Below, piece by piece: positions 16,151 through 64,000 of a DNA stretch of 64,000 nucleotides. The position numbers were made by a program, and so were the translations under genes. The notes under the pieces were generated by a model. The model ran no database searches, was not told the DNA's origin, and worked only from the letters and a program-made list of their open reading frames with translations. The stretch is from an uncultured Alphaproteobacteria bacterium (GTDB taxonomy: Bacteria; Pseudomonadota; Alphaproteobacteria; RF32; CAG-239). How positions within the stretch are numbered: the first letter of the stretch is position 1; the number at the start of each line of letters is the position of its first letter. The stretch lies in assembly GCA_944392275.1 (NCBI GenBank), contig CALXWA010000004.1, positions 20,562-84,561 of the forward strand. The letters run 5' to 3'.

Positions 16151-16594
16151 TCAAACTATTTTTTTATGATGCAATACCGTCCGCAAAATACTCTTAGGTT
16201 TGGGTGTTACAAAAACCTGCGTCGGCATATTGGCGTATTTATATTGAGGAACAACAAAAAGCCTATGCTCATCAATATTTTTTTGCAAAAGAAGAGATTT
16301 TTCCTGCCCGCAAAAAAAATCATAGCCACAATCAGTCGAAAGATTTTGTGTCAAAAACAAATATTTAATCAAAGCAACTTGTTGCTCAGCATCCAAATTT
16401 TCATCGGCAAAATATTGTTGAGCTTTCCGCTTTGCAAATTGCGTTAAAAACGACATAATATCCTGTCCGGAGCTTTTATGATACGCATCAACCAAAAAGG
16501 CTACAATCTTGTCACAACCCTTTTCTTCAATCCCCATTTCTGACAAAAAGGCTCCAACAATATCTTCGGCACTCTGAATTTTTATGGCAACCAT
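16151..16594 (-). CDS. hypothetical protein encoded between opgG and opgH
   Basis: 147-aa ORF overlapping the opgG 3' end by 13 nt. No recognisable motif and no TM segment. Confidence 0.35.
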   Translation of the reverse strand: MVAIKIQSAEDIVGAFLSEMGIEEKGCDKIVAFLVDAYHKSSGQDIMSFLTQFAKRKAQQYFADENLDAEQQVALIKYLFLTQNLSTDCGYDFFCGQEKSLLLQKNIDEHRLFVVPQYKYANMPTQVFVTPKPKSILRTVLHHKKIV

Positions 16595-18224: not shown

Positions 18225-18261
18225 AAAAGAAAAAAAGAGAAGCGGGTTTCAACCGCTTCTC
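18225..18261 (-). terminator. Rho-independent terminator
   Basis: Perfect 9-bp stem GAGAAGCGG / CCGCTTCTC with a 7-nt loop, followed on the minus strand by a T-run. It lies 3' of the small gene 18287..18511. Confidence 0.7.
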
Positions 18262-18286: not shown

Positions 18287-18511
18287 TTATTGCATCGACG
18301 GAGAAGTTTCCTTTTTTTGATAATCTTGAACTCCTTTGTTGATCTCTGCTTTTGTTTCAGCCGCAATATTCCGAAAGCCGTCATCAACTTGGGTTGAAAC
18401 TTCACCAACGGTTGTCGTTTCTGTAATTTTGCCCTCATAGACACCTTTGCCGATTAAATAAATAACAACAATCAAAATCACATAAAATAAATATTTAATA
18501 AATGTCCCCAT
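18287..18511 (-). CDS. small single-TM membrane protein, hypothetical
   Basis: 74 aa with an N-terminal TM helix (FIKYLFYVILIVVIYLIG). AGGAGGA RBS, and its own terminator. Confidence 0.55.
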   Translation of the reverse strand: MGTFIKYLFYVILIVVIYLIGKGVYEGKITETTTVGEVSTQVDDGFRNIAAETKAEINKGVQDYQKKETSPSMQ

Positions 18512-18581: not shown

Positions 18582-18610
18582 AAAAAAAGCCCGAAGATTG
18601 TCCGGGCTTT
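18582..18610 (-). terminator. Rho-independent terminator
   Basis: Hairpin AGCCCG-N9-CGGGCT, followed on the minus strand by T7. It lies 3' of the TPR gene that ends at 18625. Confidence 0.6.
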
Positions 18611-18624
18611 TAATAAAGAACAAC

Positions 18625-19590
18625 TTATTCGGCAGGTTTACTTTCCGGTTTGGGTGCACCTTCTTCAGGAACCAAGCTTTGTAATGTTCCGACCGCTTTT
18701 TTGCGTTTCAGTTTATTAACAAACTTCATGGAACGCTGAGCATCCCATTTCTTTTTACCTTCTTCTCTTTGGAAAATCTGTTGATAAACTTCAATTGCCT
18801 GATCAAATTCGGACAACTTGGTCAAACAACTGGCCAACCCGTCATAGAGCTTGTGATGATAGCGATTTCCGATAATTGTCTGTGCTTTTTTATAACATTT
18901 CAAAGCATCATTAAATTTCATCATTTTTTGATAAACAAATCCGATACTGATCCAAGCCTGAATCTCACGACTATCAATATTCAAAATTTTGGTAAAACAT
19001 TTAATGGCGGAAGCATTATCCCCCATCAACTGATAAGTAACACCAACACCGTTCCAAGCCTTAATATTGTTTTTATCATTAGCTAAGACTTTTTTAAAAA
19101 ACGAGATGGCACGATCATATTGTTTAAGTTTTTGTAACGTAACGGCAATACTGAGAAGAGTCTGGGCATGTTTATTATCAATTTTCATGGCTTGTTCCAA
19201 AACATCCAACGCCTCTTTATAAGCAAACATGTGCTGCAAAGCAATTGCTTTGCCGTTTAAGGCTTCCAAAGATGTCTTATCAATCGCCACCGCCTCATTA
19301 AAGCACATAATCGCGTCTTTATACAAGCCACGCATACTTAACGTAACACCTTTGTTGTTTAACACTTCAACAGATGTTGGATTCAATTCCAAAGCCTTGT
19401 CAAAACATTCAACGGCTTCGGTATAGCGGCTGAGTTTTTGAAAAGCAAATCCCTTTGAGTTTAAGGCTTTCCAAGAATCCGGCTGTTCGGCAATTGCCGC
19501 ATCAAATTGTTCAATTGCCTCTTTGTACATTCCTTGATCGAGCAGTTCTTGCCCTCTTTTATATGCTGTATTATCGTTTGATTTAACCAT
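18625..19590 (-). CDS. tetratricopeptide-repeat protein
   Basis: About 8 tandem 34-aa TPR units (xAxxxGxxxxxxxxYxxAIxxFxxALxLxP pattern); 321 aa. Confidence 0.8.
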   Translation of the reverse strand: MVKSNDNTAYKRGQELLDQGMYKEAIEQFDAAIAEQPDSWKALNSKGFAFQKLSRYTEAVECFDKALELNPTSVEVLNNKGVTLSMRGLYKDAIMCFNEAVAIDKTSLEALNGKAIALQHMFAYKEALDVLEQAMKIDNKHAQTLLSIAVTLQKLKQYDRAISFFKKVLANDKNNIKAWNGVGVTYQLMGDNASAIKCFTKILNIDSREIQAWISIGFVYQKMMKFNDALKCYKKAQTIIGNRYHHKLYDGLASCLTKLSEFDQAIEVYQQIFQREEGKKKWDAQRSMKFVNKLKRKKAVGTLQSLVPEEGAPKPESKPAE

Positions 19591-19671
19591 GATTACTCTC
19601 TTATCAATTATAGTTACAAAATAATTTCAGCTAAGAATGTATCATTATCGCAAATAATTGTCAATATAACC

Positions 19672-20625
19672 CTAGAAAATTTTAATATTTTGCGTGACAT
19701 CCATATCCGTACGAAAATCAATCAATTTACATCCGACCCGTCGGCAAAAATCCTGAAGATTTTTTCTCTTCTGAGCAAAATAAGTACGATAATCTTTTTG
19801 ATAGACTTTGGAGTTAGTATCAAAAATCAAGCGTTTCCCTTCATATTGAGCCATATATTCTCCCGATTTTGGCGGCAACTCTTCCAAAACATCAAAAACA
19901 TTAATCAAAAACAATTCTGTTTTGCGTGCCAAAGCGGCCAATTGAAGTTTTTCCGCCTCGTCCAAAAAATTAAAATCACTCAACAAAAAAACACTAGCCC
20001 GGTTTTTAACACTCTGCTCCAACATCTTAAGAGACCTAAGATGTCCCTCTTTTTCCCCTTGATCTTTTCGAGATAAAATTTCTTCCGACACCTGAGCCGT
20101 CTTTTTTAAAATAGCCATCAACTGAGCCCGATTGTTTTGCGGTTTGAACACATAGGTATTCCGACCATCATAAATCACACAACCAAACCGATCTTTATTT
20201 TCCAAAGAAACCCAGCCTAACAAGGAAGCCAATTTGGCCGCCGTAACGGATTTAAGCTCTTTTTTTGTTCCAAACAACATTTGCCCAGACAAATCAAGCC
20301 ACACATAAATTTCATGATCTTTTTCTTCATTAAAAACTTTAGTGTAGGGCTGTTCTTTTCGGGCAGTAATCCGCCAATCAATATCGCGAACATCATCCCC
20401 AAAGCTATAAGCTCGCACTTCCTCAAGCTCCATTCCTCGCCCCTTAAAGGCGGATTTAATATCTCCACTCTGGTGAGAATAGCTTTTCTTTTTACGGATA
20501 GACCGAACATAAGCCGCACTTTGACGCATTGCCATCAATTCTTCCAAAGAGGCATACAAGCCATTACCGGTTTCCCGCGTTTTTGGCTTAAACAAACGTT
20601 TGGCAATTTTTTTTAACTTAATCAT
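19672..20625 (-). CDS. DUF58 domain protein (MoxR-associated, vWA-like fold)
   Basis: DUF58 core (EVRAYSFGDDVRDIDWRITAR...VWLDLSGQM); sits immediately downstream of the MoxR ATPase gene. Confidence 0.7.
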   Translation of the reverse strand: MIKLKKIAKRLFKPKTRETGNGLYASLEELMAMRQSAAYVRSIRKKKSYSHQSGDIKSAFKGRGMELEEVRAYSFGDDVRDIDWRITARKEQPYTKVFNEEKDHEIYVWLDLSGQMLFGTKKELKSVTAAKLASLLGWVSLENKDRFGCVIYDGRNTYVFKPQNNRAQLMAILKKTAQVSEEILSRKDQGEKEGHLRSLKMLEQSVKNRASVFLLSDFNFLDEAEKLQLAALARKTELFLINVFDVLEELPPKSGEYMAQYEGKRLIFDTNSKVYQKDYRTYFAQKRKNLQDFCRRVGCKLIDFRTDMDVTQNIKIF

Positions 20626-20652
20626 CCTGCGACCTTACACCAATAAAACCTC

Positions 20653-21627
20653 TTAAGGCAAAGGAACCAACTTCAAAATTTTATTAATGACAAGATCCGT
20701 GGTAATGCCCTCGGCCTGAGCCTCAAAAGACAAAATAATGCGGTGCCGTAAAACATCATAAACCACGGCATGAATATCCTCCGGCGTTACAAAATCTTTT
20801 CCCTTCAACCACGCATGAATTTTAGAACACCGATCCAAAGCTAAGGTTGCACGCGGACTGGCCCCAAACATCACATAGCCGGACATTTTTTCATCATAAC
20901 GTTCCACATGACGTGTTGCCATAATCAATTGGACCAAATACTCTTCAACCGCCTCACTCATATGAACCTGCAAAGCCAAACGACGGGCTTCCAAGATATC
21001 GGCAATTTCAACGGCCGGCTTTGCCTCCCCGGCAGTATGATTTTGCTCCTGCAAAATTTCTCCCCGAACCAAACGCAAAATTTTCTTTTCGGCTTCGGCA
21101 TCCGGCTGATCAATTTTAATATACATCAAAAAACGGTCAAGTTGGGCTTCCGGAAGATTGTAAGTCCCTTCATGTTCAATCGGATTTTGCGTTGCCATAA
21201 CCATAAACAATTCCGGCAAGGCGTACTTAACACCGCCAACACTGACCTGGCGTTCGGCCATAGCCTCCAACAAGGCGGATTGAACTTTTGCCGGTGCACG
21301 GTTAATTTCATCAGCCAAAATCAAATTGGCAAAAATCGGTCCGTTCCGAAACTCAAAACATCCCTTAGCGGCAACATAAATCTCACTTCCGGTAATATCT
21401 GAGGGCAACAAATCCGGTGTAAACTGAATTCGATTGTATTTTGCTTTAATTAAAGAAGACAGCGTTTTAATAGCTTTTGTTTTAGCCAAACCGGGAGCCC
21501 CTTCCACCAAAACATGCCCATCCGCCAACAAAGCAATCATCAACTTATCCACCAAATCTTTTTGACCGATAATTTGCGAATTCATATAATTTTTCAGAGA
21601 TAAAATTTTATTTGCAACTTCTGACAT
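20653..21627 (-). CDS. MoxR-family AAA+ ATPase
   Basis: Walker A GAPGLAKT, Walker B LILADEINRA, and the MoxR-specific C-terminal lid; 324 aa. Confidence 0.9.
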   Translation of the reverse strand: MSEVANKILSLKNYMNSQIIGQKDLVDKLMIALLADGHVLVEGAPGLAKTKAIKTLSSLIKAKYNRIQFTPDLLPSDITGSEIYVAAKGCFEFRNGPIFANLILADEINRAPAKVQSALLEAMAERQVSVGGVKYALPELFMVMATQNPIEHEGTYNLPEAQLDRFLMYIKIDQPDAEAEKKILRLVRGEILQEQNHTAGEAKPAVEIADILEARRLALQVHMSEAVEEYLVQLIMATRHVERYDEKMSGYVMFGASPRATLALDRCSKIHAWLKGKDFVTPEDIHAVVYDVLRHRIILSFEAQAEGITTDLVINKILKLVPLP

Positions 21628-21629
21628 TT

Positions 21630-22577
21630 TTACAATCCTGCTCCGTTAATCCGATTTAAAAAATTATAATATTCTTCCAAAACCATTGTTTTCATCATAT
21701 CATTGCCCATAAAGTCAAATAACTCGACTGAACGTTTATAATGAGCTTTGGCACGTTCAAAATCTCCTTTTTCACGATTACAGCTTTCAACTCGTGCCAA
21801 ATACAAAAGAGCTTCAGCCTCTGCATAATGATGAGAAACTTTACCATACAAATAAACCGATTTCATCAAAGCTTTTCTTGCTTTTTCAATATCTTTGATA
21901 ACATAACGCAAACATCCGATCGCCGATAAAGCAGAAGCCTCCCCCAACAAATCGCCGTTTTCCCGATACAAATCACGACATCTTTCCAACACATCATGAG
22001 CATAATCATAATTTTTATTTTTAATTTCGATTCGGGCAATGGCACGCAAAACAGAAGCTTCTTTCAAACTAACATGATCGGCTTTATAATATTCTGCTGC
22101 TTTTTGGTAAGCTTTTAAGGCCTCTTTTTCGTTATTTTCAATTAAAAAAACATACGCTTCTTGGTCACAAACATCGCCGAGCAAATCCGGGTTTCCGACA
22201 TTTTCTAAAATTTTTTTAGCATTCCAAAGGGTTTCTTTTGCTTTTTGCAGCTCATTTTGCGAGGTATAAACTTTAGCCAGTTTAATCAAAATTTCGCCAT
22301 ACGTATTCTGAGCAAAATCCTTATCCGCAACCAATGCTCCGGCCGCCTGCAACGTTTTTTCCGCTTGCTTGTAGTTTTCAAGACTAAGCAACAGTTCTCC
22401 CAAACGGGCTAAAACAAAAGCCTCTCCCTCATCATCCTCTTTTTCATGATACAAAGAAGCGGCCTTTTCATAATTTTTCCGAGCATCTTCATATTGACCG
22501 GCACGCCAGTTATCATCGGCTTTTTGAAAGACTTTTGATGCTTCCGTAACCAGTTTTCCCTGACTTGTTCTAGGCAT
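21630..22577 (-). CDS. tetratricopeptide-repeat protein
   Basis: TPR units throughout. Its stop is 3 nt before the MoxR start. Confidence 0.75.
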   Translation of the reverse strand: MPRTSQGKLVTEASKVFQKADDNWRAGQYEDARKNYEKAASLYHEKEDDEGEAFVLARLGELLLSLENYKQAEKTLQAAGALVADKDFAQNTYGEILIKLAKVYTSQNELQKAKETLWNAKKILENVGNPDLLGDVCDQEAYVFLIENNEKEALKAYQKAAEYYKADHVSLKEASVLRAIARIEIKNKNYDYAHDVLERCRDLYRENGDLLGEASALSAIGCLRYVIKDIEKARKALMKSVYLYGKVSHHYAEAEALLYLARVESCNREKGDFERAKAHYKRSVELFDFMGNDMMKTMVLEEYYNFLNRINGAGL

Positions 22578-22652
22578 TGCAGATTCTCCTTTTCAAACTT
22601 TTAATATTATTATATATATGGTCTAAAAGTTAAAAAAACAAGAAGATTAGCA

Positions 22653-24941
22653 ATGGATGATACTTTTGATTTAGAGGAGCCGTTTACACCGGAAACCAAT
22701 GATAATATCTCGGCTTTAATGCCCACCTGCCCCTGGCTTGACATGCTCAATCCGGAGCAAAAATTAGCCGTGCAAACAACGCAAGGGCCGCTTTTGGTCC
22801 TATCCGGAGCCGGGACCGGAAAAACCAAAGTTTTAACCACACGGTTAGCTTATATTTTAGCCAATCGTTTAGCCAACCCGTGGGAATGTCTGGTGGTAAC
22901 GTTTACCAACCGTGCCGCCCGAGAAATGAAAGAGCGTGTGGAAAACATGATTGGCGAAATTGCCAACTCGGTCTGGCTCGGAACCTTTCACAGCATTTGT
23001 GTCAAAATCCTTCGCAATCATGCAGAACTGGTCGGATTACATTCCAACTTTACCATTCTCGGAGAAGATGACCAAAAAAGGTTAATCAAACAAATTCTTG
23101 AAACACAAGGTATAGATTCGCAAAAATATCCCCCCCAGTCAATTCTGGAAAAAATCAGTCGCTGGAAGGATAAAGGTATCAGTGTTGATAAAATCAGCAA
23201 TGATTTTAAAGAAACAACCGTTACTCAGGTCTACAAACTGTATCAAGCCCGCCTTCTGGAGCTAAACTGCGTTGACTTTGGCGACATTATTCTTTATTGC
23301 CTCAATATTTTAATGTCTGACAAAGACGTGTTGGACAAATACCAAAGCCGTTTCAAGTACATTATGGTCGATGAATATCAAGATACCAATGTCAGTCAAT
23401 ATCTGTTAATCCGGCTTTTGTGCCAAAAATATCGCAACATCTGCTGCGTCGGAGATGATGACCAATCCATCTATTCTTGGCGAGGAGCCGAAATTGAAAA
23501 TATCTTGCGGTTTAACAAAGACTTTGAAGATGCCAAAACCATCCGTTTGGAGCGAAACTATCGTTCCACGGCAAATATTTTGGCGGCGGCCTCAAATCTC
23601 ATCGCCCATAACGAAAGCCGCCTTGGCAAAACCCTAAAAGTTGCCGAAAACTCTCCGGCCAACCAAGCCGAAAACAGCAAAATCAAAATTGTCAGTACCT
23701 ATAACGGAGAAGAAGAAGCCAAATATGTCGTTGATGAAATCGACTCTCTGATTCGCGACGGCTATAATTACTCGGATATTGCCATTTTAGTCCGTACAGC
23801 CGCCCAAACGCGCGAATTTGAAGAAAAATTTATGGCTGAGGCCCTTCCTTACCAAGTCATCGGCGGACTAAAATTCTATGAACGAGCCGAAATTCGCGAT
23901 GCCTTAGCCTATTTTCGAGTTGTCTTGCAACCCCATGATGATCTGGCGTTAGAAAGAATCATCAACAAGCCGGCCCGTGGTATTGGTGCCAAGACGATTG
24001 AAAAACTCGAAACCTTTGCTCGCAACAACCATATTTCGCTTTATATGGCAATTGAACAAATGCTGTCTCTTGGAAGCTTTAGCGGAAAAACACAAAATGC
24101 CCTCTCAAAGTTAATCGAAAATTTTCAATCATGGCGTCAAATAATGCCCGCCATCACTCCGGACGAACTGGCCGAACAAATTTTAGAAGAATGCGGATAC
24201 ATTGAAATGCTAAAAGCCGACAACTCGGCTGAAGCCCCGGGGAGACTTGAAAACCTGAAAGAATTAATCAACGTCATGAGCGACACCGACAAATATCCAT
24301 CGCTTTCAGAGTTTATGGAACACGTCAGTTTAGTAATTGACAAAGACGATATCAGTAATGAAAACAAAGTAAGGCTCATTACACTTCACTCGGCCAAGGG
24401 GTTAGAGTTTAATGTTGTTTTTCTTCCCGGATGGGAGGAAGGTCTTTTCCCGCACCAACGCAGTCTAGATGAAAGTGGCAACGCCGCTTTGGAAGAAGAA
24501 CGCCGTCTTGCCTATGTTGCAATAACCCGGGCCAAACAAAAGCTCTATATCTCAATGGCCATGAACCGCCGTGTCTATGGCCAATGGCAACAAAACCTCC
24601 CTTCTCGCTTTATTAATGAGCTTCCCAAAGCCAATATTGAAATATGCAATCGCTGCAATAACCTTTACAACAGCAATTTCAGTAATTATATCAAACAAAA
24701 ACCCACTTCCTGGTTCAACCAACCCAAGGAGAAATCACATGACTTTCGTTCTGGTATCAACCCTGTTGGGAATTTTAGCCGTCAACCTGTTCATGCAAGT
24801 CTGATTGGCTCAAAAGTATATCACGAAACTTTTGGCTACGGAATGGTCGTTGCGGCAGATGGCGACAAGCTTCAAGTCTGTTTTGAAACAGCCGGCATCA
24901 AAAAACTAATGCGTAATTTTGTGACAAAAGTTTCTAAATAA
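22653..24941 (+). CDS. uvrD: ATP-dependent DNA helicase, UvrD/Rep/PcrA family
   Basis: Motif I (GAGTGKT) and all SF1 motifs; 762 aa. Confidence 0.9.
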   Translation: MDDTFDLEEPFTPETNDNISALMPTCPWLDMLNPEQKLAVQTTQGPLLVLSGAGTGKTKVLTTRLAYILANRLANPWECLVVTFTNRAAREMKERVENMIGEIANSVWLGTFHSICVKILRNHAELVGLHSNFTILGEDDQKRLIKQILETQGIDSQKYPPQSILEKISRWKDKGISVDKISNDFKETTVTQVYKLYQARLLELNCVDFGDIILYCLNILMSDKDVLDKYQSRFKYIMVDEYQDTNVSQYLLIRLLCQKYRNICCVGDDDQSIYSWRGAEIENILRFNKDFEDAKTIRLERNYRSTANILAAASNLIAHNESRLGKTLKVAENSPANQAENSKIKIVSTYNGEEEAKYVVDEIDSLIRDGYNYSDIAILVRTAAQTREFEEKFMAEALPYQVIGGLKFYERAEIRDALAYFRVVLQPHDDLALERIINKPARGIGAKTIEKLETFARNNHISLYMAIEQMLSLGSFSGKTQNALSKLIENFQSWRQIMPAITPDELAEQILEECGYIEMLKADNSAEAPGRLENLKELINVMSDTDKYPSLSEFMEHVSLVIDKDDISNENKVRLITLHSAKGLEFNVVFLPGWEEGLFPHQRSLDESGNAALEEERRLAYVAITRAKQKLYISMAMNRRVYGQWQQNLPSRFINELPKANIEICNRCNNLYNSNFSNYIKQKPTSWFNQPKEKSHDFRSGINPVGNFSRQPVHASLIGSKVYHETFGYGMVVAADGDKLQVCFETAGIKKLMRNFVTKVSK

Positions 24942-25032: not shown

Positions 25033-26361
25033 CTAAAACGGACTGGAAACATCCGGAACGACTGTCCCCTGAGAGGAAGAACCTTTCTCCGGTTTTATAG
25101 AGACCGTTCCGTCAATCCAATAACGTTCAATTTCTTCCACACTGGGAACTTCTACTTTCTTAACTTCCTCAACCCGTTCAATCGTATTGGTCTGTCCTTG
25201 CGTATTAACCAAGAGATTAACCGGTTGGTTAGAACTTGAAACCGGAAGCTCAACAACACTTACGGACGTTCCGGATTTTTTAGGTTGTTCTACCACCTTG
25301 GAGGAAGAAACGCTTGCCGTCGCAACATTCTTTTTTTGTGTTCCCGTATTTTTTCGAATACCGAGATATCTTTCAACGGCGGCTTTTTCACGAGCTTTTT
25401 CCTTAGCCGTAATCAAATTCAAATCATATAAGGCCTCTAATTTTCGCAAATCCTTAGCCGCACCGAAAATATCACGCGACGGAGCTTTTGGTTTCATTCT
25501 TTCCCGGGGTTCCGGATCCATCAAAGCAATAATAATGGTATCTCTTTCAGCCGAAAACTCTTGCGGAGAAATAGCTCGATTTTCAACAGCCTCTTTCAAA
25601 ACTTCAATTCTCTCCACAATCAAATCCGGAGACGGAACCGGCTCATCAATCCCGGTACCGCCCGGTTTATTGGTCAACGGCAATAAGCCTCCGATATTTG
25701 CCTGCCTTCTCGTCAAAAATTCTTCTTGGGTAATAAGGTCTTTTTCAGCCAATTCCTTTAAGGTCAAAAACCGAGAGATAATATTTTGTTCTTGTGGTGT
25801 AAAGAGCTCTCCGACATCGGGCGTTTTTTTCGCCTTAACGACCGGCTTTTTGTTTAGGGCCTTTTGGATGGCCATAGCCGACTGTTCCGCACTGCTTTGT
25901 TCCGAAATATTAAAAGCCTTAACCCCATCTTTATTTTCAATCAACAATTCACTTTGCTTTACTTCAAGCATCCGGAGCTTTTTCTTGGCAATATCAACAA
26001 TTTTTTCGGGAACATTACTGTCGGTACCGAGGATTGTTGTTTCATTTCCGCCAATGATAATTAAATCCTCATAATACTGACGCGCCCGATTCAACCGCCC
26101 TGTTTTTTCCGCCGTTAAGGCCCCCACCAATAAAGCTTGCTGATTTCTCGGATTAGCTTTCAAAGCTTCCGCGACAAACTCGGCCGCCTTTTTAAAATCC
26201 CCTTGAGAATAGGCAACGGTGGCTTGACTAGCCTCTTCATTACCGTTTTTCTCAAACATTTGCACAAACCAGTTCGATTCCTCATCAGAATCTTTTTTAT
26301 CAATCACGGCACAGGCATTCAGGGCACACGCGGCTGTCAGACCAAGCAACATTGTTTTCAT
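25033..26361 (-). CDS. TPR-containing lipoprotein, hypothetical
   Basis: ORF-track start is a TTG at 26403; trimmed to the ATG at 26361 (MKTMLLGLTAACALNAC, a lipobox). TPR-like N-terminal region and a Pro/Ser-rich C-terminus. Confidence 0.5.
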   Translation of the reverse strand: MKTMLLGLTAACALNACAVIDKKDSDEESNWFVQMFEKNGNEEASQATVAYSQGDFKKAAEFVAEALKANPRNQQALLVGALTAEKTGRLNRARQYYEDLIIIGGNETTILGTDSNVPEKIVDIAKKKLRMLEVKQSELLIENKDGVKAFNISEQSSAEQSAMAIQKALNKKPVVKAKKTPDVGELFTPQEQNIISRFLTLKELAEKDLITQEEFLTRRQANIGGLLPLTNKPGGTGIDEPVPSPDLIVERIEVLKEAVENRAISPQEFSAERDTIIIALMDPEPRERMKPKAPSRDIFGAAKDLRKLEALYDLNLITAKEKAREKAAVERYLGIRKNTGTQKKNVATASVSSSKVVEQPKKSGTSVSVVELPVSSSNQPVNLLVNTQGQTNTIERVEEVKKVEVPSVEEIERYWIDGTVSIKPEKGSSSQGTVVPDVSSPF

Positions 26362-26549
26362 AATACGGGCAGAACTCAAGAGATTGCTCCTCAACAAAAT
26401 CAAAAAAAACTTTTTCTGCTGCTCATAATATATAAGATTGAATTATATTACAATAATTTTGTTTGCTTTGTTAATTTGTGCTTGATTTCTTGCAAATATT
26501 ATGTAGTATTGCAGAAAATTAACAAACAATTAACCATGTTTTAACGATT

Positions 26550-26634
26550 GCGGGTGTGGTGAAATTGGTAGACACGCCAGACTTAGGATCTGGTGCCGCA
26601 AGGTTTAAGAGTTCGAGTCTCTTCACCCGCACCA
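26550..26634 (+). tRNA. tRNA-Leu (anticodon TAG)
   Basis: 85 nt: GCGGGTG acceptor, anticodon loop CTTAGGA, long variable arm, GTTCGAGTC T-arm, and 3' ACCA. Confidence 0.9.
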
Positions 26635-26679
26635 TATTTGAGCATTCAGATATGGATTAACAACGAAAGAAGTGATTTG

Positions 26680-28062
26680 ATGAATATTACCGAATTAAAG
26701 TCTGAAGGCTTGAAAAAAGAATATAAAGTATCGGTTTCTGCTTCTGAATTTGAACAGAAAGTTGACGATAAAATCAAACAAGTTGCCAAAAACGCAAAAC
26801 TTCCGGGCTTCCGTGCCGGCAAAGCACCTTTTGCCATGCTAAAGAAAAAATACAAAGATTCTGTTATGGGCGAAGCTTTGGATGATGTTGTTCGCAACGC
26901 CATTGCCGATTTGGTAAAAGAAAAAAATCTTCGTCCGGCAACCCAACCGGATGTTAAAGTTACTTCTTTTGCTGAAGGTAAAGATGTTGAATTTGAAGTA
27001 TCGGTTGACACACTTCCTGAAATTAAAATTAAAGACTTCTCCGGTATTTCATTAGACAAATACATGGCAGAAGTTCCGGCAGAAGAAGTTGAAAAAGCTT
27101 TGAACTATCTTGCTCAAGCTCGGAAAGAAACATCTCCTGTTAATCGTGCAGCCCAAAAGACCGATGTTGTCATGATTGACTTTACCGGATCCGTAGATGG
27201 GGTTGAATTCAAAGGCGGCAAAGGCAATAACTATCCTTTAGAGCTTGGTTCTAATGCCTTTATCCCTGGTTTTGAGGATCAATTAATCGGGGCTAAAGCC
27301 GGTGATAAAATTGATGTTAAAGTCAAATTCCCCGACAACTATCATGCCAAAGATTTAGCCGGAAAAGATGCTGTTTTTGTAACAGAAGTCAAAGAAGTTC
27401 GTGAACAAAAAACTGTAGAAATCAATGACGATTTTGCCAAATCCATGGGTGAAGAAAATCTTGATAAATTAAAAGAAACAATTTCTAACCGCATTAAAAG
27501 CGATTATGAATCCGCTTCTCGCATGAAAATCAAACGTCAATTGTTGGATACTTTAGACAAAGAATACAACTTTGAAGTTCCGTCTTCTTTGGTTGATGCC
27601 GAATACAAAGCAATTCTTGACCAATATGAGCAAGCAAAAAAATACAATCAATTAGATGAAAATGAAAAGAACAAATCCGAAGACGAATTAAAAGCCGAAT
27701 ACAAAGACATTGCCGTTCGTCGTGTAAAACTCGGCCTTGTTCTTTCGCAAATCGGTCAAGAAGCCGAAGTCAGCATCAAACCGGAAGATATTAATGAAGC
27801 CATTATGAAAGAGGCTAAAAAATACCCCGGACAAGAAAAAATGGTTTTAGATTATTATCTGAAAAACAAATCGGCCGTTGATGCTCTCAAAGCCCCGATT
27901 TTTGAAGAAAAAATTGTTGATCATATCATCAGCAAAGCTAAAGTTTCTGAAAAAATCGTAAGCGTTGAAGATTTATACAACTTTGACGAAGAAAAAAAGG
28001 CTGCTAAAAAAGCCGCTCCGAAAAAAGAAACAAAAACCAAAAGCGAAAAGAAATCCGCTTAA
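26680..28062 (+). CDS. tig: trigger factor (ribosome-associated PPIase chaperone)
   Basis: Trimmed to the ATG at 26680 (MNITELKSEGLKKEYKV...), because the ORF-track N-terminal extension overlaps tRNA-Leu. Has the FKBP-type middle domain and a Lys-rich C-terminal tail. Confidence 0.9.
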   Translation: MNITELKSEGLKKEYKVSVSASEFEQKVDDKIKQVAKNAKLPGFRAGKAPFAMLKKKYKDSVMGEALDDVVRNAIADLVKEKNLRPATQPDVKVTSFAEGKDVEFEVSVDTLPEIKIKDFSGISLDKYMAEVPAEEVEKALNYLAQARKETSPVNRAAQKTDVVMIDFTGSVDGVEFKGGKGNNYPLELGSNAFIPGFEDQLIGAKAGDKIDVKVKFPDNYHAKDLAGKDAVFVTEVKEVREQKTVEINDDFAKSMGEENLDKLKETISNRIKSDYESASRMKIKRQLLDTLDKEYNFEVPSSLVDAEYKAILDQYEQAKKYNQLDENEKNKSEDELKAEYKDIAVRRVKLGLVLSQIGQEAEVSIKPEDINEAIMKEAKKYPGQEKMVLDYYLKNKSAVDALKAPIFEEKIVDHIISKAKVSEKIVSVEDLYNFDEEKKAAKKAAPKKETKTKSEKKSA

Positions 28063-57996: not shown

Positions 57997-58023
57997 AGGC
58001 TCTATTAAACAATTTTGTTGAAA
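57997..58023. repeat. left terminal inverted repeat of the IS1595-family element (GGCTCTATTAAACAATTTTGTTGAAAT)
   Basis: 27-bp perfect reverse complement of 60049-60075. Confidence 0.85.
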
Positions 58024-58108
58024 TATACTCTAAATAAAATCCTTGCTAAATTATTTGATAAGAATTTACAATGTAATTCTGATTAATAATTTATGAAAAG
58101 GATTTTTA

Positions 58109-58333
58109 TTGCCAAATAATACTTTTGAAGATTTCAAAAAATTTTTAGATAATTTTCCTGAAAAATTTGAATCTTTTAATCTGGATATTAACCTTAATGA
58201 ATGTACAATTACTGTTACAATTCATTATTCCAAAACATTTACTGCTTCATTAGGAAAATTTATATGTACTTCTGATGATTTATTTCAAACATATAATGAA
58301 TTGGCTATTTTTCTTAAAGAGAGAGTTAGATAA
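58109..58333 (+). CDS. passenger ORF, 74-aa hypothetical protein (TTG start)
   Basis: Inside the IS element. AAGGA RBS 7 nt before the TTG. No similarity recognised. Confidence 0.35.
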   Translation: MPNNTFEDFKKFLDNFPEKFESFNLDINLNECTITVTIHYSKTFTASLGKFICTSDDLFQTYNELAIFLKERVR

Positions 58334-58579
58334 TAATCTTTTTATGATATTTGATTCTTTTATTATATCAGTATTGTTATTGATAGTTTGATGAATTTCC
58401 AATTTTGGAATAAATTTTACAATATTTAATTTTCTATTTTTCATAACAAAAATCTCCTAATCTTATACAAGTATTTATAAGGAGATTTTTGTTATTTGTG
58501 AATCAAATAATTTTTTCTTTGACTTTTCATTATTTAAGTTGATAATTTATCATATTGAATATCATTGAAAGGTCTAAAA

Positions 58580-59041
58580 ATGTCATATGTAAAAGGAACT
58601 CTATCAAAAGATGAGGAAATTAAAGAAGTTGTGAAACTGCATTGGTTCAATTATATTTTTACAGGTATTATAGCTTTTGTTGCTCTACTTTTTGTAATTT
58701 CTTATTTTGCAAGTGCTGAATTACAAAAAGACCCAGGAACAAAATGGATTGTTATACTTTTTGTTCTATGGGCATTATATGATTTCCTAAAATTATATAC
58801 AACCGAAATGGTTATAACCAATAAGAGAGTTATATGCAGAAAAGGCATTATTAGCGTAAAAACAGAAGAATTGAAAAATGCAAAAGTTGAGTCTATTGAG
58901 ATTAAACAATCAATATTAGGAAGAATTTTTGGGTATGCTACTATTTGGTTTTCAGGAACAGGAACATCAAAAGTAAAATTTGAAGCTGTTGATGACCCTT
59001 GGGCAATAAAAAGCCGAGTGGAGTCAATCATTGGTGATTAA
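58580..59041 (+). CDS. passenger gene: bacterial PH-domain (bPH_2, YdbS/YdbT-like) membrane protein
   Basis: Two TM helices, then a PH-like module (VITNKRVICRKGIISVKTEELKNAKVESIEIKQSILGRIFGYATIWF). The ORF-track TTG at 58565 was trimmed to the ATG at 58580, which has a GAAAGG RBS. Confidence 0.6.
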   Translation: MSYVKGTLSKDEEIKEVVKLHWFNYIFTGIIAFVALLFVISYFASAELQKDPGTKWIVILFVLWALYDFLKLYTTEMVITNKRVICRKGIISVKTEELKNAKVESIEIKQSILGRIFGYATIWFSGTGTSKVKFEAVDDPWAIKSRVESIIGD

Positions 59042-59077
59042 TTTTTTGAAGTGGTGTATTTTTACACCACTTTTATT

Positions 59078-59986
59078 TTATCCCAATAAACAATCTTTTA
59101 TCAACAAATTATTATCGGCACCTGATTTAATCCAACTAAACCAGTTCAAATAATTAGTTAAATATCGGGTGCTGATTCCGTTAAAATGCCTTACAAAATC
59201 TTTCAAACCTTTGTGATAATTGCTTACATTGTTAATATGATATTCTCCGTTTTTATGCTTACCTCGTGCTATTCTCTTATGTTGTAAATTGTGATTTTTA
59301 GCAAATTGAATATATGATTTATGGGAATCTGTTACCAAAATTGAATCTTCTTCAATCTTATTGCCTAAAACATTTTCTGTTTGTTGGGTTGTTAATCGCC
59401 CTCTACCATAAACATCAGAAATAATATTTTTGTTTCCATCCATAGCAACCATTATACCGATTTGGTAATGAGAAATACCTCTTAATTTTGCTTTACCACC
59501 TCTTTTTCTGCCTTTTATACCCTCAATTTTCTTACCTTTATGAGATTCAAGCAAAAATGTTTCATCTGCTTCTACAACACCTGAAACAGTTGTATTTTGA
59601 AACTGTTTTTTGATAGCATTTAAAACCTTATGTCTCCAACGAAAAGCAGTTAAAACAGATATACCACATTTAGGAGCAATTTTAGCAAGTGATAAACCTG
59701 TCATCATCAATTCAATGTATTTGAACCAAGTGTCATAATCTTTTTTAGTGCTGAAAAATATTGTTTTCGTATATTCAGTAAAGGTCTTACCACAATCTTT
59801 ACATCTATATCTTTGGATACCACTACTGCTACCAAATTTCTGAATATGTTTTTTTCCACAAATGGGACAAACAACACCATTTTCAAATCTTTTTACAGAA
59901 GTTTTAGATTTTTGAACTTTGCTGAAAAGATGTTTCAGTTCTTCCTCTGATAACTTTTTTAATTGCTCTAATAAATCTTGATTCAT
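59078..59986 (-). CDS. IS1595-family (ISXO2-like) transposase
   Basis: N-terminal zinc ribbon (CPICGKK...CKDCGK) and a DDE domain; 302 aa. Flanked by the terminal inverted repeats. Confidence 0.85.
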   Translation of the reverse strand: MNQDLLEQLKKLSEEELKHLFSKVQKSKTSVKRFENGVVCPICGKKHIQKFGSSSGIQRYRCKDCGKTFTEYTKTIFFSTKKDYDTWFKYIELMMTGLSLAKIAPKCGISVLTAFRWRHKVLNAIKKQFQNTTVSGVVEADETFLLESHKGKKIEGIKGRKRGGKAKLRGISHYQIGIMVAMDGNKNIISDVYGRGRLTTQQTENVLGNKIEEDSILVTDSHKSYIQFAKNHNLQHKRIARGKHKNGEYHINNVSNYHKGLKDFVRHFNGISTRYLTNYLNWFSWIKSGADNNLLIKDCLLG

Positions 59987-60048
59987 TTTACCTATCCCTT
60001 TGTTTTATATAAGTATTATAAGGGATTTTATGAAAATTGTCAAGCCAT

Positions 60049-61450: not shown

Positions 61451-64000
61451 ATGTCTGACGTTAAGATGAAAATGATGGATGCCAACGAAGCAGCTGCTTC
61501 AGTTGCACACCGCATGAATGAAGTCTGCGTGATCTATCCGATTACACCGTCCTCCCCGATGGGCGAATGGGCAGATGCTTGGTCCGCAGCAAAACAAAAA
61601 AACCTTTGGGGTGTTATTCCTGAAGTTCAGGAAATGCAATCGGAAGCCGGAGCTGCCGGTGCATGCCACGGTTCTTTACAAGCCGGAGCATTGACCACAA
61701 CCTTTACGGCGTCTCAAGGTTTGTTGTTAATGATCCCGAACATGTACAAAATTGCCGGAGAACTCACACCGTTTGTAATGCATGTTGCCGCTCGTTCTTT
61801 GGCATATCATGCCTTGTCAATTTTTGGCGACCACTCCGATGTTATGTCTTGCCGTCAGACCGGTTTTGCAATGCTTTGCTCCAACTCCGTTCAAGAGGCT
61901 CATGACTTTGCTGCCATTGCACAAACTTCTACTTTACGTTCTCGTGTACCGTTCATGCACTTCTTTGACGGTTTCCGTACATCTCACGAGATTAAAAAGA
62001 TTAAACTTTTGTCTGATGACGATTTAAGAGCAATGCTTGAAGGTGTTGATTATACCTTTAACGCCAAAAATGCTCTTCGTCCGGAAGCTCCGGTTATCCG
62101 TGGTACGGCTCAAAACCCGGATGTATTCTTCCAAGGACGTGAAGCTGCCAATACCTACTATGAAAAAGTAGAAGGCATCGTTCAAGAAGAAATGGATAAA
62201 TTTGCCAAAATCAGTGGTCGTCAGTACAAAACGGTTGAATACGTCGGCCCGGCAGATGCTGAACAAGTTATCGTTATTATGGGTTCTGGAGCAGAAACTG
62301 TTGATGAAACCATTACCTATCTTAACAATAACGGCTACAAAGTCGGCTTGCTTAAAGTTCGTTTGTATCGTCCGTTCCCGTCCAAATCTTTTGTTGCCGC
62401 ATTGCCAAAATCTGTTAAAGTGGTCAATGTTTTGGATCGTACCAAAGAATCCGGTTCTATTGGTGAACCGTTGTATTTGGATGTTGTTGCCACATTAACG
62501 CAAGCTTATGCCAACAACGAAATTTCTTCAATGCCTCGCATTTTGGGTGGCCGTTACGGTTTATCTTCAAAAGAATTTACACCGGGAATGGTTCGTGCCG
62601 TTTATGACAATGGGGCTTCGGCAAAACCCATTAACGGCTTTACCGTTGGTATTAACGATGATGTTACCCACAAATCTTTACCTTACAGTGATGATATTGA
62701 CACCGAGGGCAAAGATGTTGTTCGCGCCGTATTCTATGGCTTAGGAGCAGATGGTACGGTTGGTGCCAACAAAAACTCCATTAAAATCATTGCAGAAGAT
62801 GCCGGCAAATATGGTCAAGGTTATTTTGTTTACGATTCTCGTAAATCGGGTTCCATGACCACATCCCACTTACGTTTTTCTGACCACCCGATTAAAGCGG
62901 CTTATTTGATTAACAAAGCCGACTTTGTCGCTTGCCACCAATTCCCGTTCATGAAAAAAGTTGACATTTTGGGTATTGCAAAACCGGGAGCAACTTTCTT
63001 ATTGAACGCTCCATATGAAGGGAATGAAGTTTGGGATCACTTAACGGCTGAAGTTCAACAAGAAATCATTGATAAAAAATTGAACTTCTATGTTATTAAC
63101 GCCGTTGACGTTGCTCGTCAAACCGGTATGGGACAACGCATTAACACCATTATGCAAACATGCTTCTTTGCAATTTCTAACATTTTGCCCAAAGATGAAG
63201 CAATTGCTCAGATTAAAAATGCCATTAAGAAAACCTACAGCAAAAAAGGCGATGCCATTGTTCAAAAGAACTTTGTTGCCGTAGATGCTTCTTTAGAGCA
63301 TTTGCATAAAGTAGAATATCCTGCAAACGTTACCTCAAAATTACATCGTTTGGCTCCGGTACCGGAAAATGCACCGGAATTCGTCAAGAAATTGACTGCT
63401 GAAATTATTGCCGACCGCGGTAATGAGCTTCCGGTTTCTGCATTCCACGATGTTGTTGACGGTACTTGGCCGACAGGAACAACTCAGTACGAAAAACGTT
63501 GCATTGCAACCGAAATTCCGGTATGGGATGCCGACGCTTGTATCCAATGCGGTAAATGTTCTTTAGTTTGCCCGCACGGTGTAATTCGTATGAAAGTTGC
63601 GACGAAAGAAGAATTAAAGAATGCTCCGGCCGGCTTCAAATCCGCTCCTTACAAAGGTAAAGAATTTTCCGGAAAAGAATTTATTTGGCAAATGTCTCCG
63701 GAAGATTGTACCGGTTGTGGTATCTGCGTCAGTGCATGCCCGGTTAAAAACAAAGTTGATCCAAACAAAAAAGCAATCAATATGGAACACATTGAAAATC
63801 ATTTGGATGAACAAGTTGCAAATTGGAAATTCTTTGAAACTTTGCCGTATGTAAAACGTACCGAAGTTGTTAAGAACCTTCCGAAAACAACCCAGTTAAT
63901 TCAACCTTTGTTTGAATTCTCCGGTGCTTGTGCCGGCTGTGGTGAAACACCATATGTAAAATTGTTGACTCAACTCTTTGGTGACCGCATGGTTGTTGCC
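61451..64000 (+). CDS. nifJ: pyruvate:ferredoxin (flavodoxin) oxidoreductase, NifJ/PorA type (5' partial; continues beyond the window)
   Basis: MSDVKMKMMDANEAAASVAHRMNEVCVIYPITPSSPMGEWAD... matches the PFOR N-terminal domain I. The ferredoxin-like domain with 2x CxxCxxCxxxCP (CIQCGKCSLVCPHG and CTGCGICVSACPV) lies at about 63540-63750. The frame is open to the end of the window. Confidence 0.9.
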   Translation, partial: MSDVKMKMMDANEAAASVAHRMNEVCVIYPITPSSPMGEWADAWSAAKQKNLWGVIPEVQEMQSEAGAAGACHGSLQAGALTTTFTASQGLLLMIPNMYKIAGELTPFVMHVAARSLAYHALSIFGDHSDVMSCRQTGFAMLCSNSVQEAHDFAAIAQTSTLRSRVPFMHFFDGFRTSHEIKKIKLLSDDDLRAMLEGVDYTFNAKNALRPEAPVIRGTAQNPDVFFQGREAANTYYEKVEGIVQEEMDKFAKISGRQYKTVEYVGPADAEQVIVIMGSGAETVDETITYLNNNGYKVGLLKVRLYRPFPSKSFVAALPKSVKVVNVLDRTKESGSIGEPLYLDVVATLTQAYANNEISSMPRILGGRYGLSSKEFTPGMVRAVYDNGASAKPINGFTVGINDDVTHKSLPYSDDIDTEGKDVVRAVFYGLGADGTVGANKNSIKIIAEDAGKYGQGYFVYDSRKSGSMTTSHLRFSDHPIKAAYLINKADFVACHQFPFMKKVDILGIAKPGATFLLNAPYEGNEVWDHLTAEVQQEIIDKKLNFYVINAVDVARQTGMGQRINTIMQTCFFAISNILPKDEAIAQIKNAIKKTYSKKGDAIVQKNFVAVDASLEHLHKVEYPANVTSKLHRLAPVPENAPEFVKKLTAEIIADRGNELPVSAFHDVVDGTWPTGTTQYEKRCIATEIPVWDADACIQCGKCSLVCPHGVIRMKVATKEELKNAPAGFKSAPYKGKEFSGKEFIWQMSPEDCTGCGICVSACPVKNKVDPNKKAINMEHIENHLDEQVANWKFFETLPYVKRTEVVKNLPKTTQLIQPLFEFSGACAGCGETPYVKLLTQLFGDRMVVA

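Follow-up and report, generated by a model that had tools for sequence, protein, structure and literature searches.

Pairs of a MoxR-family ATPase and a DUF58 protein are among the most widespread AAA+ systems of bacteria, and they have no agreed client or mechanism. MoxR genes of the MRP type are usually accompanied by genes for DUF58, von Willebrand factor A (vWA) and tetratricopeptide repeat (TPR) proteins (PMC11834572), and MoxR and vWA proteins are described as a chaperone and co-chaperone couple (PMC7159879). The closest described arrangement is the Bacteroides aerotolerance (Bat, or BatI) operon, with homologues in Spirochaetes, Francisella, Riemerella and Rhizobium (RL3499-RL3502), where an MRP-type MoxR gene is followed by DUF58, an unnamed gene, BatA, BatB (both with a vWA domain and a BatA_N anchor), BatC, BatD and BatE. 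Such operons are hard to study as most of the partners are membrane proteins. Here we describe a MoxR-DUF58 locus in a stretch of 64,000 nucleotides from an uncultured Alphaproteobacteria bacterium (contig CALXWA010000004.1, positions 20,562 to 84,561; hereafter the window), where the pair is accompanied by two TPR proteins of 315 and 321 residues (TPR315 and TPR321).

The locus shares with the Bat operon the order of MoxR and DUF58 and the company of TPR proteins, and the nearest relatives of its MoxR and DUF58 lie in Bat operons. It differs in lacking the unnamed gene and BatA to BatE. Its TPR proteins are soluble and are not orthologues of BatC or BatE, one of them is encoded upstream of moxR, and a serine of the metal ion-dependent adhesion site (MIDAS) of DUF58 is not conserved. 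We favour, with moderate confidence, a reading in which the locus encodes a minimal, fully cytoplasmic MoxR-vWA remodelling pair that was derived from a Bat-type operon by loss of the membrane components and to which TPR315 was added in one subclade. Two-component couples of a MoxR-family ATPase and a vWA protein are known from NorQ-NorD, CbbQ-CbbO, RavA-ViaA and CoxD-CoxE. These differ from the present pair in the MoxR subfamily, which is CbbQ/NirQ/NorQ or RavA in the known couples and AAA_3/MRP here (NCBIfam RavA, 21.7 bits against a cutoff of 681). In addition, no client gene for nitric oxide reductase, Rubisco or CO dehydrogenase lies near the locus and the MIDAS motif is relaxed.

Probable loss of the membrane Bat genes

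All four genes lie on the minus strand in the order TPR315 (21630-22577; Pfam TPR_12, 1.4e-20), MoxR (20653-21627; AAA_3, 6.8e-63 and AAA_lid_2, 3.3e-20), DUF58 (19672-20625; 3.8e-36) and TPR321 (18625-19590; TPR_1, 4.5e-56). A preliminary description of this DNA, made from the sequence alone, had given the same order; the open reading frames (ORFs) lie exactly at the coordinates given there, and their domain assignments are borne out by the Pfam profiles. The four ORFs are real genes and not chance ORFs, because numerous homologues were found for each of them. The stop codon of TPR315, the first gene of the unit, is separated from the moxR ATG by 2 nt and moxR from DUF58 by 27 nt, and as judged from this spacing the three genes are a single tight transcription unit. 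No signal peptide or transmembrane segment was found in any of the four proteins from the hydrophobicity of their translations. They are read as soluble because no hydrophobic segment fits a signal peptide or a membrane helix. In codon usage, compared with a reference of AdhE, Tig and PFOR (pyruvate:ferredoxin oxidoreductase), TPR315 ranks first, TPR321 fourth and MoxR fifth of the 46 non-reference genes in the window, and all genes of the module are under purifying selection. Together these observations suggest a module in active use rather than in decay, although the codon-usage signal is weak.

A hidden Markov model (HMM) was built from the BatA and BatB proteins of outgroup loci and applied with a threshold of 1e-10. 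The outgroup comprised 50 loci, forty of which are informative in having at least 3 kb downstream of DUF58, and two matches per locus were found in 37 of these forty. By the same model there were no matches in the 64-kb window and none in thirty related loci of the clade (about 470 kb). Pfam scans of 47 ORFs in the window revealed no other vWA domain, and neither BatD nor a membrane- or SH3-bearing BatC or BatE follows DUF58 in the window. The same Pfam procedure recovered proteins with VWA and BatA_N domains as well as BatD in two outgroup loci (L035 and L085) used as positive controls. The absence of BatA and BatB from the neighbourhood is real and clade-wide. In two Calditrichota loci (L055 and L077), same-strand genes of BatA/B-like size follow DUF58 and fail to reach the 1e-10 threshold with the model; they could represent vWA genes that have diverged or a further case of reduction.

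The thirty loci of the clade, sampled as one genome per species, come from metagenome-assembled genomes (MAGs) of gut and rumen alphaproteobacteria, among which DUF58 is 43-64% identical; in other phyla the identity falls sharply to about 34%. The window also has a GcrA gene, as suits an alphaproteobacterial origin, and the MAGs may resemble the GTDB order RF32. Comparison of synteny, which the preliminary description had proposed as a check, showed that all thirty loci share the order of a divergent uvrD-like helicase gene, TPR315 where present, MoxR and DUF58, and that none of them carries a vWA gene of the BatA/B type. The nearest outgroup MoxR/DUF58 pairs (L035, L040, L044 and about 45 more) belong to operons of the canonical kind, in which BatD and a pair of vWA genes are present. 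In a neighbour-joining tree of MoxR and DUF58, the clade is sister to the vWA-bearing L035, L040 and L044, and because these sister loci carry vWA genes, the tree points to loss of the membrane Bat genes on the stem of the gut alphaproteobacterial clade. Such a loss would have covered the unnamed gene after DUF58 together with BatA, BatB, BatC, BatD and BatE. As far as these comparisons go, the clade as a whole carries a reduced form of the known Bat-type system and not a new kind of system. The suggestion of a reduced variant in the preliminary description thus holds throughout the clade, which offers a natural, all-soluble version of the system across many gut species and hence a simpler one in which to ask what the core pair does.

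MoxR and its vWA-fold partner

The MoxR protein scores 210.8 bits with AAA_3 against a Pfam cutoff of 27 and 72.1 bits with AAA_lid_2 against 22.7, and its translation has an intact Walker A (G43APGLAKT50) and Walker B (hhhhD106E107) motif. It is 64-82% identical to the MoxR proteins of the clade and 44-56% identical to those of canonical Bat operons. A secondary Pfam match to bpMoxR (3.1e-17), and the fact that MoxR-vWA pairs form the core of 'ternary' conflict systems (PMC7159879), bring up an anti-phage function in which a TPR protein would act as the sensor or effector arm. This we hold to be extremely improbable. The AAA_3 match is far stronger than the bpMoxR match, and a PADLOC search with the four proteins gave only generic TPR matches and one weak match of 22.6 bits. 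There is no effector, peptidase, VMAP or iSTAND component, and the position beside the uvrD-like gene is fixed in the chromosome throughout the clade, unlike that of mobile defence islands.

The gene for the vWA-fold partner adjoins moxR. Its product covers positions 1-215 of the 216 in the DUF58 profile PF01882 with 124.8 bits (Pfam cutoff 23.4) and gives a weak match to VWA_2 (0.008). More than 1,200 relatives were found, and the nearest named ones are from MAGs of uncultured Alphaproteobacteria. A sequence search of the PDB returned no solved relative of DUF58, so that the fold was judged on an AlphaFold model, which is confident at residues 102-310 and shows a Rossmann-like vWA fold in the C-terminal two thirds. 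According to this model DUF58 is itself a vWA-fold protein, and the module is not devoid of vWA proteins. The view that the usual vWA partners are lacking was therefore half right: it applies to BatA and BatB, in the operon, the window and the thirty loci, but not to the vWA fold as such.

The MIDAS motif of DUF58 is relaxed (D111-L-S113-G-Q115-M). D111 at the end of strand 1, S113 and D217 after strand 4 are kept, with D111 and D217 defining the metal site, and the second serine of the DxSxS motif is replaced by Q115. At this position serine is present in only eight of the thirty clade sequences compared with 44 of the 48 aligned outgroup sequences, and the methionine that follows (M116) is invariant in the clade. 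In the alignments, then, the loss of the membrane partners coincides with a relaxed constraint on the MIDAS of DUF58.

These results bear on the aerotolerance function that had been thought plausible for an oxygen-sensitive organism carrying adhE and PFOR. AdhE is confirmed, and a long open frame that leaves the end of the window (61451-64000, plus strand) has an N-terminus that reads, by eye, as that of pyruvate:ferredoxin oxidoreductase. An anaerobic lifestyle is plausible because of these two genes, and it says nothing specific about the MoxR-DUF58 module. One could suppose that a Bat-type aerotolerance system was retained, with BatA to BatE encoded elsewhere in the genome and acting with MoxR-DUF58 to protect the anaerobe. 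The Bat operons that hold the closest outgroup pairs are in favour of this, as are the AdhE and PFOR-like genes and the MsrA and nitroreductase genes of the window. Nevertheless, we think it very unlikely, as neither the 64-kb window nor any of the thirty related loci has a BatA or BatB gene, all four proteins are soluble, and the MIDAS serine that is nearly constant in the DUF58 proteins of Bat operons varies here, which would fit a changed partnership. Nor is the Bat role general, for Leptospira biflexa with all bat genes deleted shows no oxidative-stress phenotype (PMC3557215). Aerotolerance as a label pertains to the complete operon, with the membrane and periplasm-facing proteins that are missing here; it is not supported for this module and should not be carried over indiscriminately to MoxR-DUF58 pairs.

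The two TPR proteins

TPR315 was found in fourteen loci, in which the gene is preceded by a conserved ATATATATAATAATAT box and by the ribosome-binding site AAAGGAG. The intergenic region between the uvrD-like gene and TPR315 (22578..22652, minus strand) likely holds the promoter and leader of the TPR315-moxR-DUF58 unit, and it contains a promoter-like site, TTAACT-16-AATAAT, at 22633..22606. From the narrow gap between the two genes, TPR315 is probably translationally coupled to moxR. A search with TPR315 gave 195 matches and, among the 120 matches listed, all are at least 62% identical; from these the family appears to be confined to the clade. In the neighbour-joining tree TPR315 is restricted to one subclade, therefore a single gain is indicated, and the gene would be a later, clade-only addition that followed the loss of the membrane Bat genes. 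One locus within the subclade (L011) has no TPR315 but keeps its leader (AAAGCAGAATCTG) as well as the bases that immediately precede the ATG of moxR. Because both ends of the gene remain, this absence is read as a secondary deletion.

The predicted model of TPR315 is all-helical, with fifteen helices of the TPR_12/LGN type and a mean predicted local distance difference test (pLDDT) score of 94.4. The best fold matches are LGN/Pins and the Rap proteins, with 12-14% sequence identity, a likeness of fold class only, as neither a GoLoco nor a phosphatase context is present here. On the basis of the model, TPR315 would be an LGN/Rap-like TPR superhelix, and superhelices of this fold class clasp a peptide in extended form. 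An analogy with alpha-SNAP, raised by a Pfam SNAP match of 46 bits, was dropped since the best folds are LGN/Pins and Rap and not SNAP.

TPR321 differs in several respects. The preliminary description placed a terminator between DUF58 and this gene, which a terminator scan did not find in the window or in two related loci (L010 and L026). Instead, the 81-nt gap carries a conserved sigma-70-type promoter at 19636..19664 (minus strand), composed of TTGACA, a 17-nt spacer and TG-n-TACATT. When the gaps of the window and 24 related loci were aligned (25 sequences), the -35 TTGACA was identical in 24 of the 25 sequences (TTGACT in L026/L027) and the extended -10 was kept, while synonymous sites are saturated between these genomes. 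Because the -35 is unchanged despite this saturation, TPR321 is, from the alignment, a gene with its own promoter, although read-through from DUF58 is possible because no terminator separates the two.

Just 3' of the promoter, between it and the ribosome-binding site, lies a conserved leader element, AATTATTTTGTAACTATAATT (19606..19626, minus strand), which occurs once in the window. Its core, AATTATTYTG, is kept in nearly all the aligned sequences, and the element as a whole forms an imperfect inverted repeat (AATTAT/ATAATT). It may serve as an operator or to enhance translation. An RNA element was considered for this leader and rejected, since the best Rfam match had an E-value of only 0.13 (a snoRNA family) and no stable fold was predicted (z-score 0.97).

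The TPR321 protein is soluble and of the classical TPR kind, and a basic motif at its C-terminus, EEGKKKWDAQRSxKFVNKLKRKKA, is conserved. Across the clade it is 77-95% identical, compared with 43-64% for DUF58. At non-synonymous sites it diverges two to seven times less than its neighbours do (pN 0.03-0.14), with equally saturated synonymous divergence, as expected of a gene under strong purifying selection. Recent horizontal transfer as the cause of this conservation was ruled out, as the synonymous divergence (pS 0.71-0.84) is as saturated as in the neighbouring genes. By this constraint TPR321, itself uncharacterised, stands out as a protein of probable importance to these gut bacteria.

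Homology searches with TPR321 returned mostly fragments and one homologue of 45% identity when a word index was used, and in an exhaustive HMMER search giant multi-TPR proteins crowded out other matches. A collection of 15 billion proteins contains the three adjacent proteins but not TPR321 in its exact sequence, and the gene has no precomputed Pfam matches in the contig tables. Owing to this database gap the searches are distorted and say little on the distribution of the family. A scan of viral contigs with the TPR321 alignment gave no match. TPR321 was also compared with BatC and BatE and rejected as an orthologue, the similarity being generic to TPR proteins (20-30 bits; 35 bits with the NCBIfam BatC model, whose cutoff is 175).

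Of the 29 loci in which sequence continues beyond DUF58, 24 have TPR321 as the next gene, and this adjacency is seen in every lineage of the neighbour-joining tree but two. In those two the place of TPR321 is taken by a GT2 glycosyltransferase gene in L023, L025 and L034 and by an oppositely oriented LptF/G gene in L032; the gene in L033 was left unassigned. TPR321 might be a genuine further member of the module, its third or fourth, that acts as client or as main adaptor, replaces BatC/BatE and owes its conservation to many contacts within the machine. We regard this as unlikely, though it has several points on its side: the adjacency holds while genes further downstream vary, the tree suggests that it is ancestral to the clade, transcription could run on from DUF58, and in Francisella a TPR protein encoded in the moxR operon shares the interactions of MoxR (PMC11834572). 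Its own promoter and leader speak against it, as do the two lineages that keep MoxR-DUF58 with a glycosyltransferase or LptF/G gene in its place and the merely generic likeness to proteins of the BatC position. Moreover, the only more distant full-length homologue (P0135, 45% identity) is found beside mraY-ftsW-murG and lpxK and not beside MoxR. Conserved adjacency is in itself weak evidence of a link because the uvrD-like gene, for which no functional tie is expected, is equally syntenic. TPR321 is best described as a strongly constrained neighbour, and a functional tie to MoxR is possible. The idea that two TPR proteins flank the pair as parts of one unit does not hold up, with TPR315 confined to one subclade and TPR321 under separate control.

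A bolder version would have both TPR proteins replace the membrane arm of Bat as client hubs of a three- or four-part cytoplasmic machine, the loss of the MIDAS serine marking a switch from metal-bridged to TPR-mediated capture; we consider it distinctly improbable. In the minimal cytoplasmic pair that we favour, the MoxR ring would draw on ATP to remodel a client protein or bring it to maturity, by analogy with NorQ-NorD, RavA-ViaA, CbbQ-CbbO and Midasin. By the same MoxR-vWA analogy, DUF58 would dock on the ring and hold the client, probably with less dependence on the classical metal bridge, as its second serine has lost constraint. The client would be cytoplasmic, and TPR315 might recruit it as an adaptor or else regulate the pair. 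In Francisella, MoxR, VWA1 and TPR1 interact with pyruvate and oxoglutarate dehydrogenases (PMC11834572).

Several observations weigh against the favoured reading. The absence of BatA and BatB covers the window and the clade loci, and unlinked copies may exist elsewhere in the genomes. The client is hypothetical, being taken from the analogy with known couples. About half of the clade does without TPR315, which is hence not essential to the pair, and its adaptor role is argued from gene coupling and fold class. Finally, residues 44-101 of DUF58 (SAFKGRGMELEE..GDDVRDIDWRITARK) are the most conserved block of the protein and have the lowest model confidence (pLDDT 35-45); this block may fold only against a partner.

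Neighbouring genes and other features of the window

The divergent uvrD-like helicase gene (22653-24941) lies upstream of TPR315. It was present in all 29 clade loci with upstream sequence, and its product is 58-76% identical across the clade. A third TPR protein of 456 residues is encoded beyond the helicase gene (25033-26403, minus strand). Its N-terminus (..LTAACALNAC..) resembles that of a lipoprotein and a weak match to SHOCT was obtained; the protein probably has no connection with the module.

On the other side, TPR321 is followed by a terminator-like hairpin at 18611..18585 (minus strand) with an 11-bp stem, a 5-nt loop and a T-run, then by a small membrane-protein gene, opgG and opgH. 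The small gene (18287-18511, minus strand) encodes a 74-residue protein with one N-terminal membrane helix and lies between this hairpin and a second terminator-like hairpin at 18261..18237. Homologues of the 74-residue protein follow TPR321 in several related loci and are located elsewhere in others. An ORF of 147 residues without a Pfam match (16151-16594, minus strand) was found between opgG and opgH, where it overlaps opgG in its last part; gene calls for this ORF are present in several independent contigs.

Two further features were noted in more distant parts of the window. The trigger factor ORF (26593-28062, plus strand) opens at a GTG inside a tRNA-Leu gene (26550-26634, plus strand), and the real start is probably a downstream ATG (MNITELK..). 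A low-GC island at 58000-60000 (0.27 compared with about 0.39), situated by a tRNA-Gly gene and a gene for an IS1595-family transposase (59078-59986), is probably an insertion.

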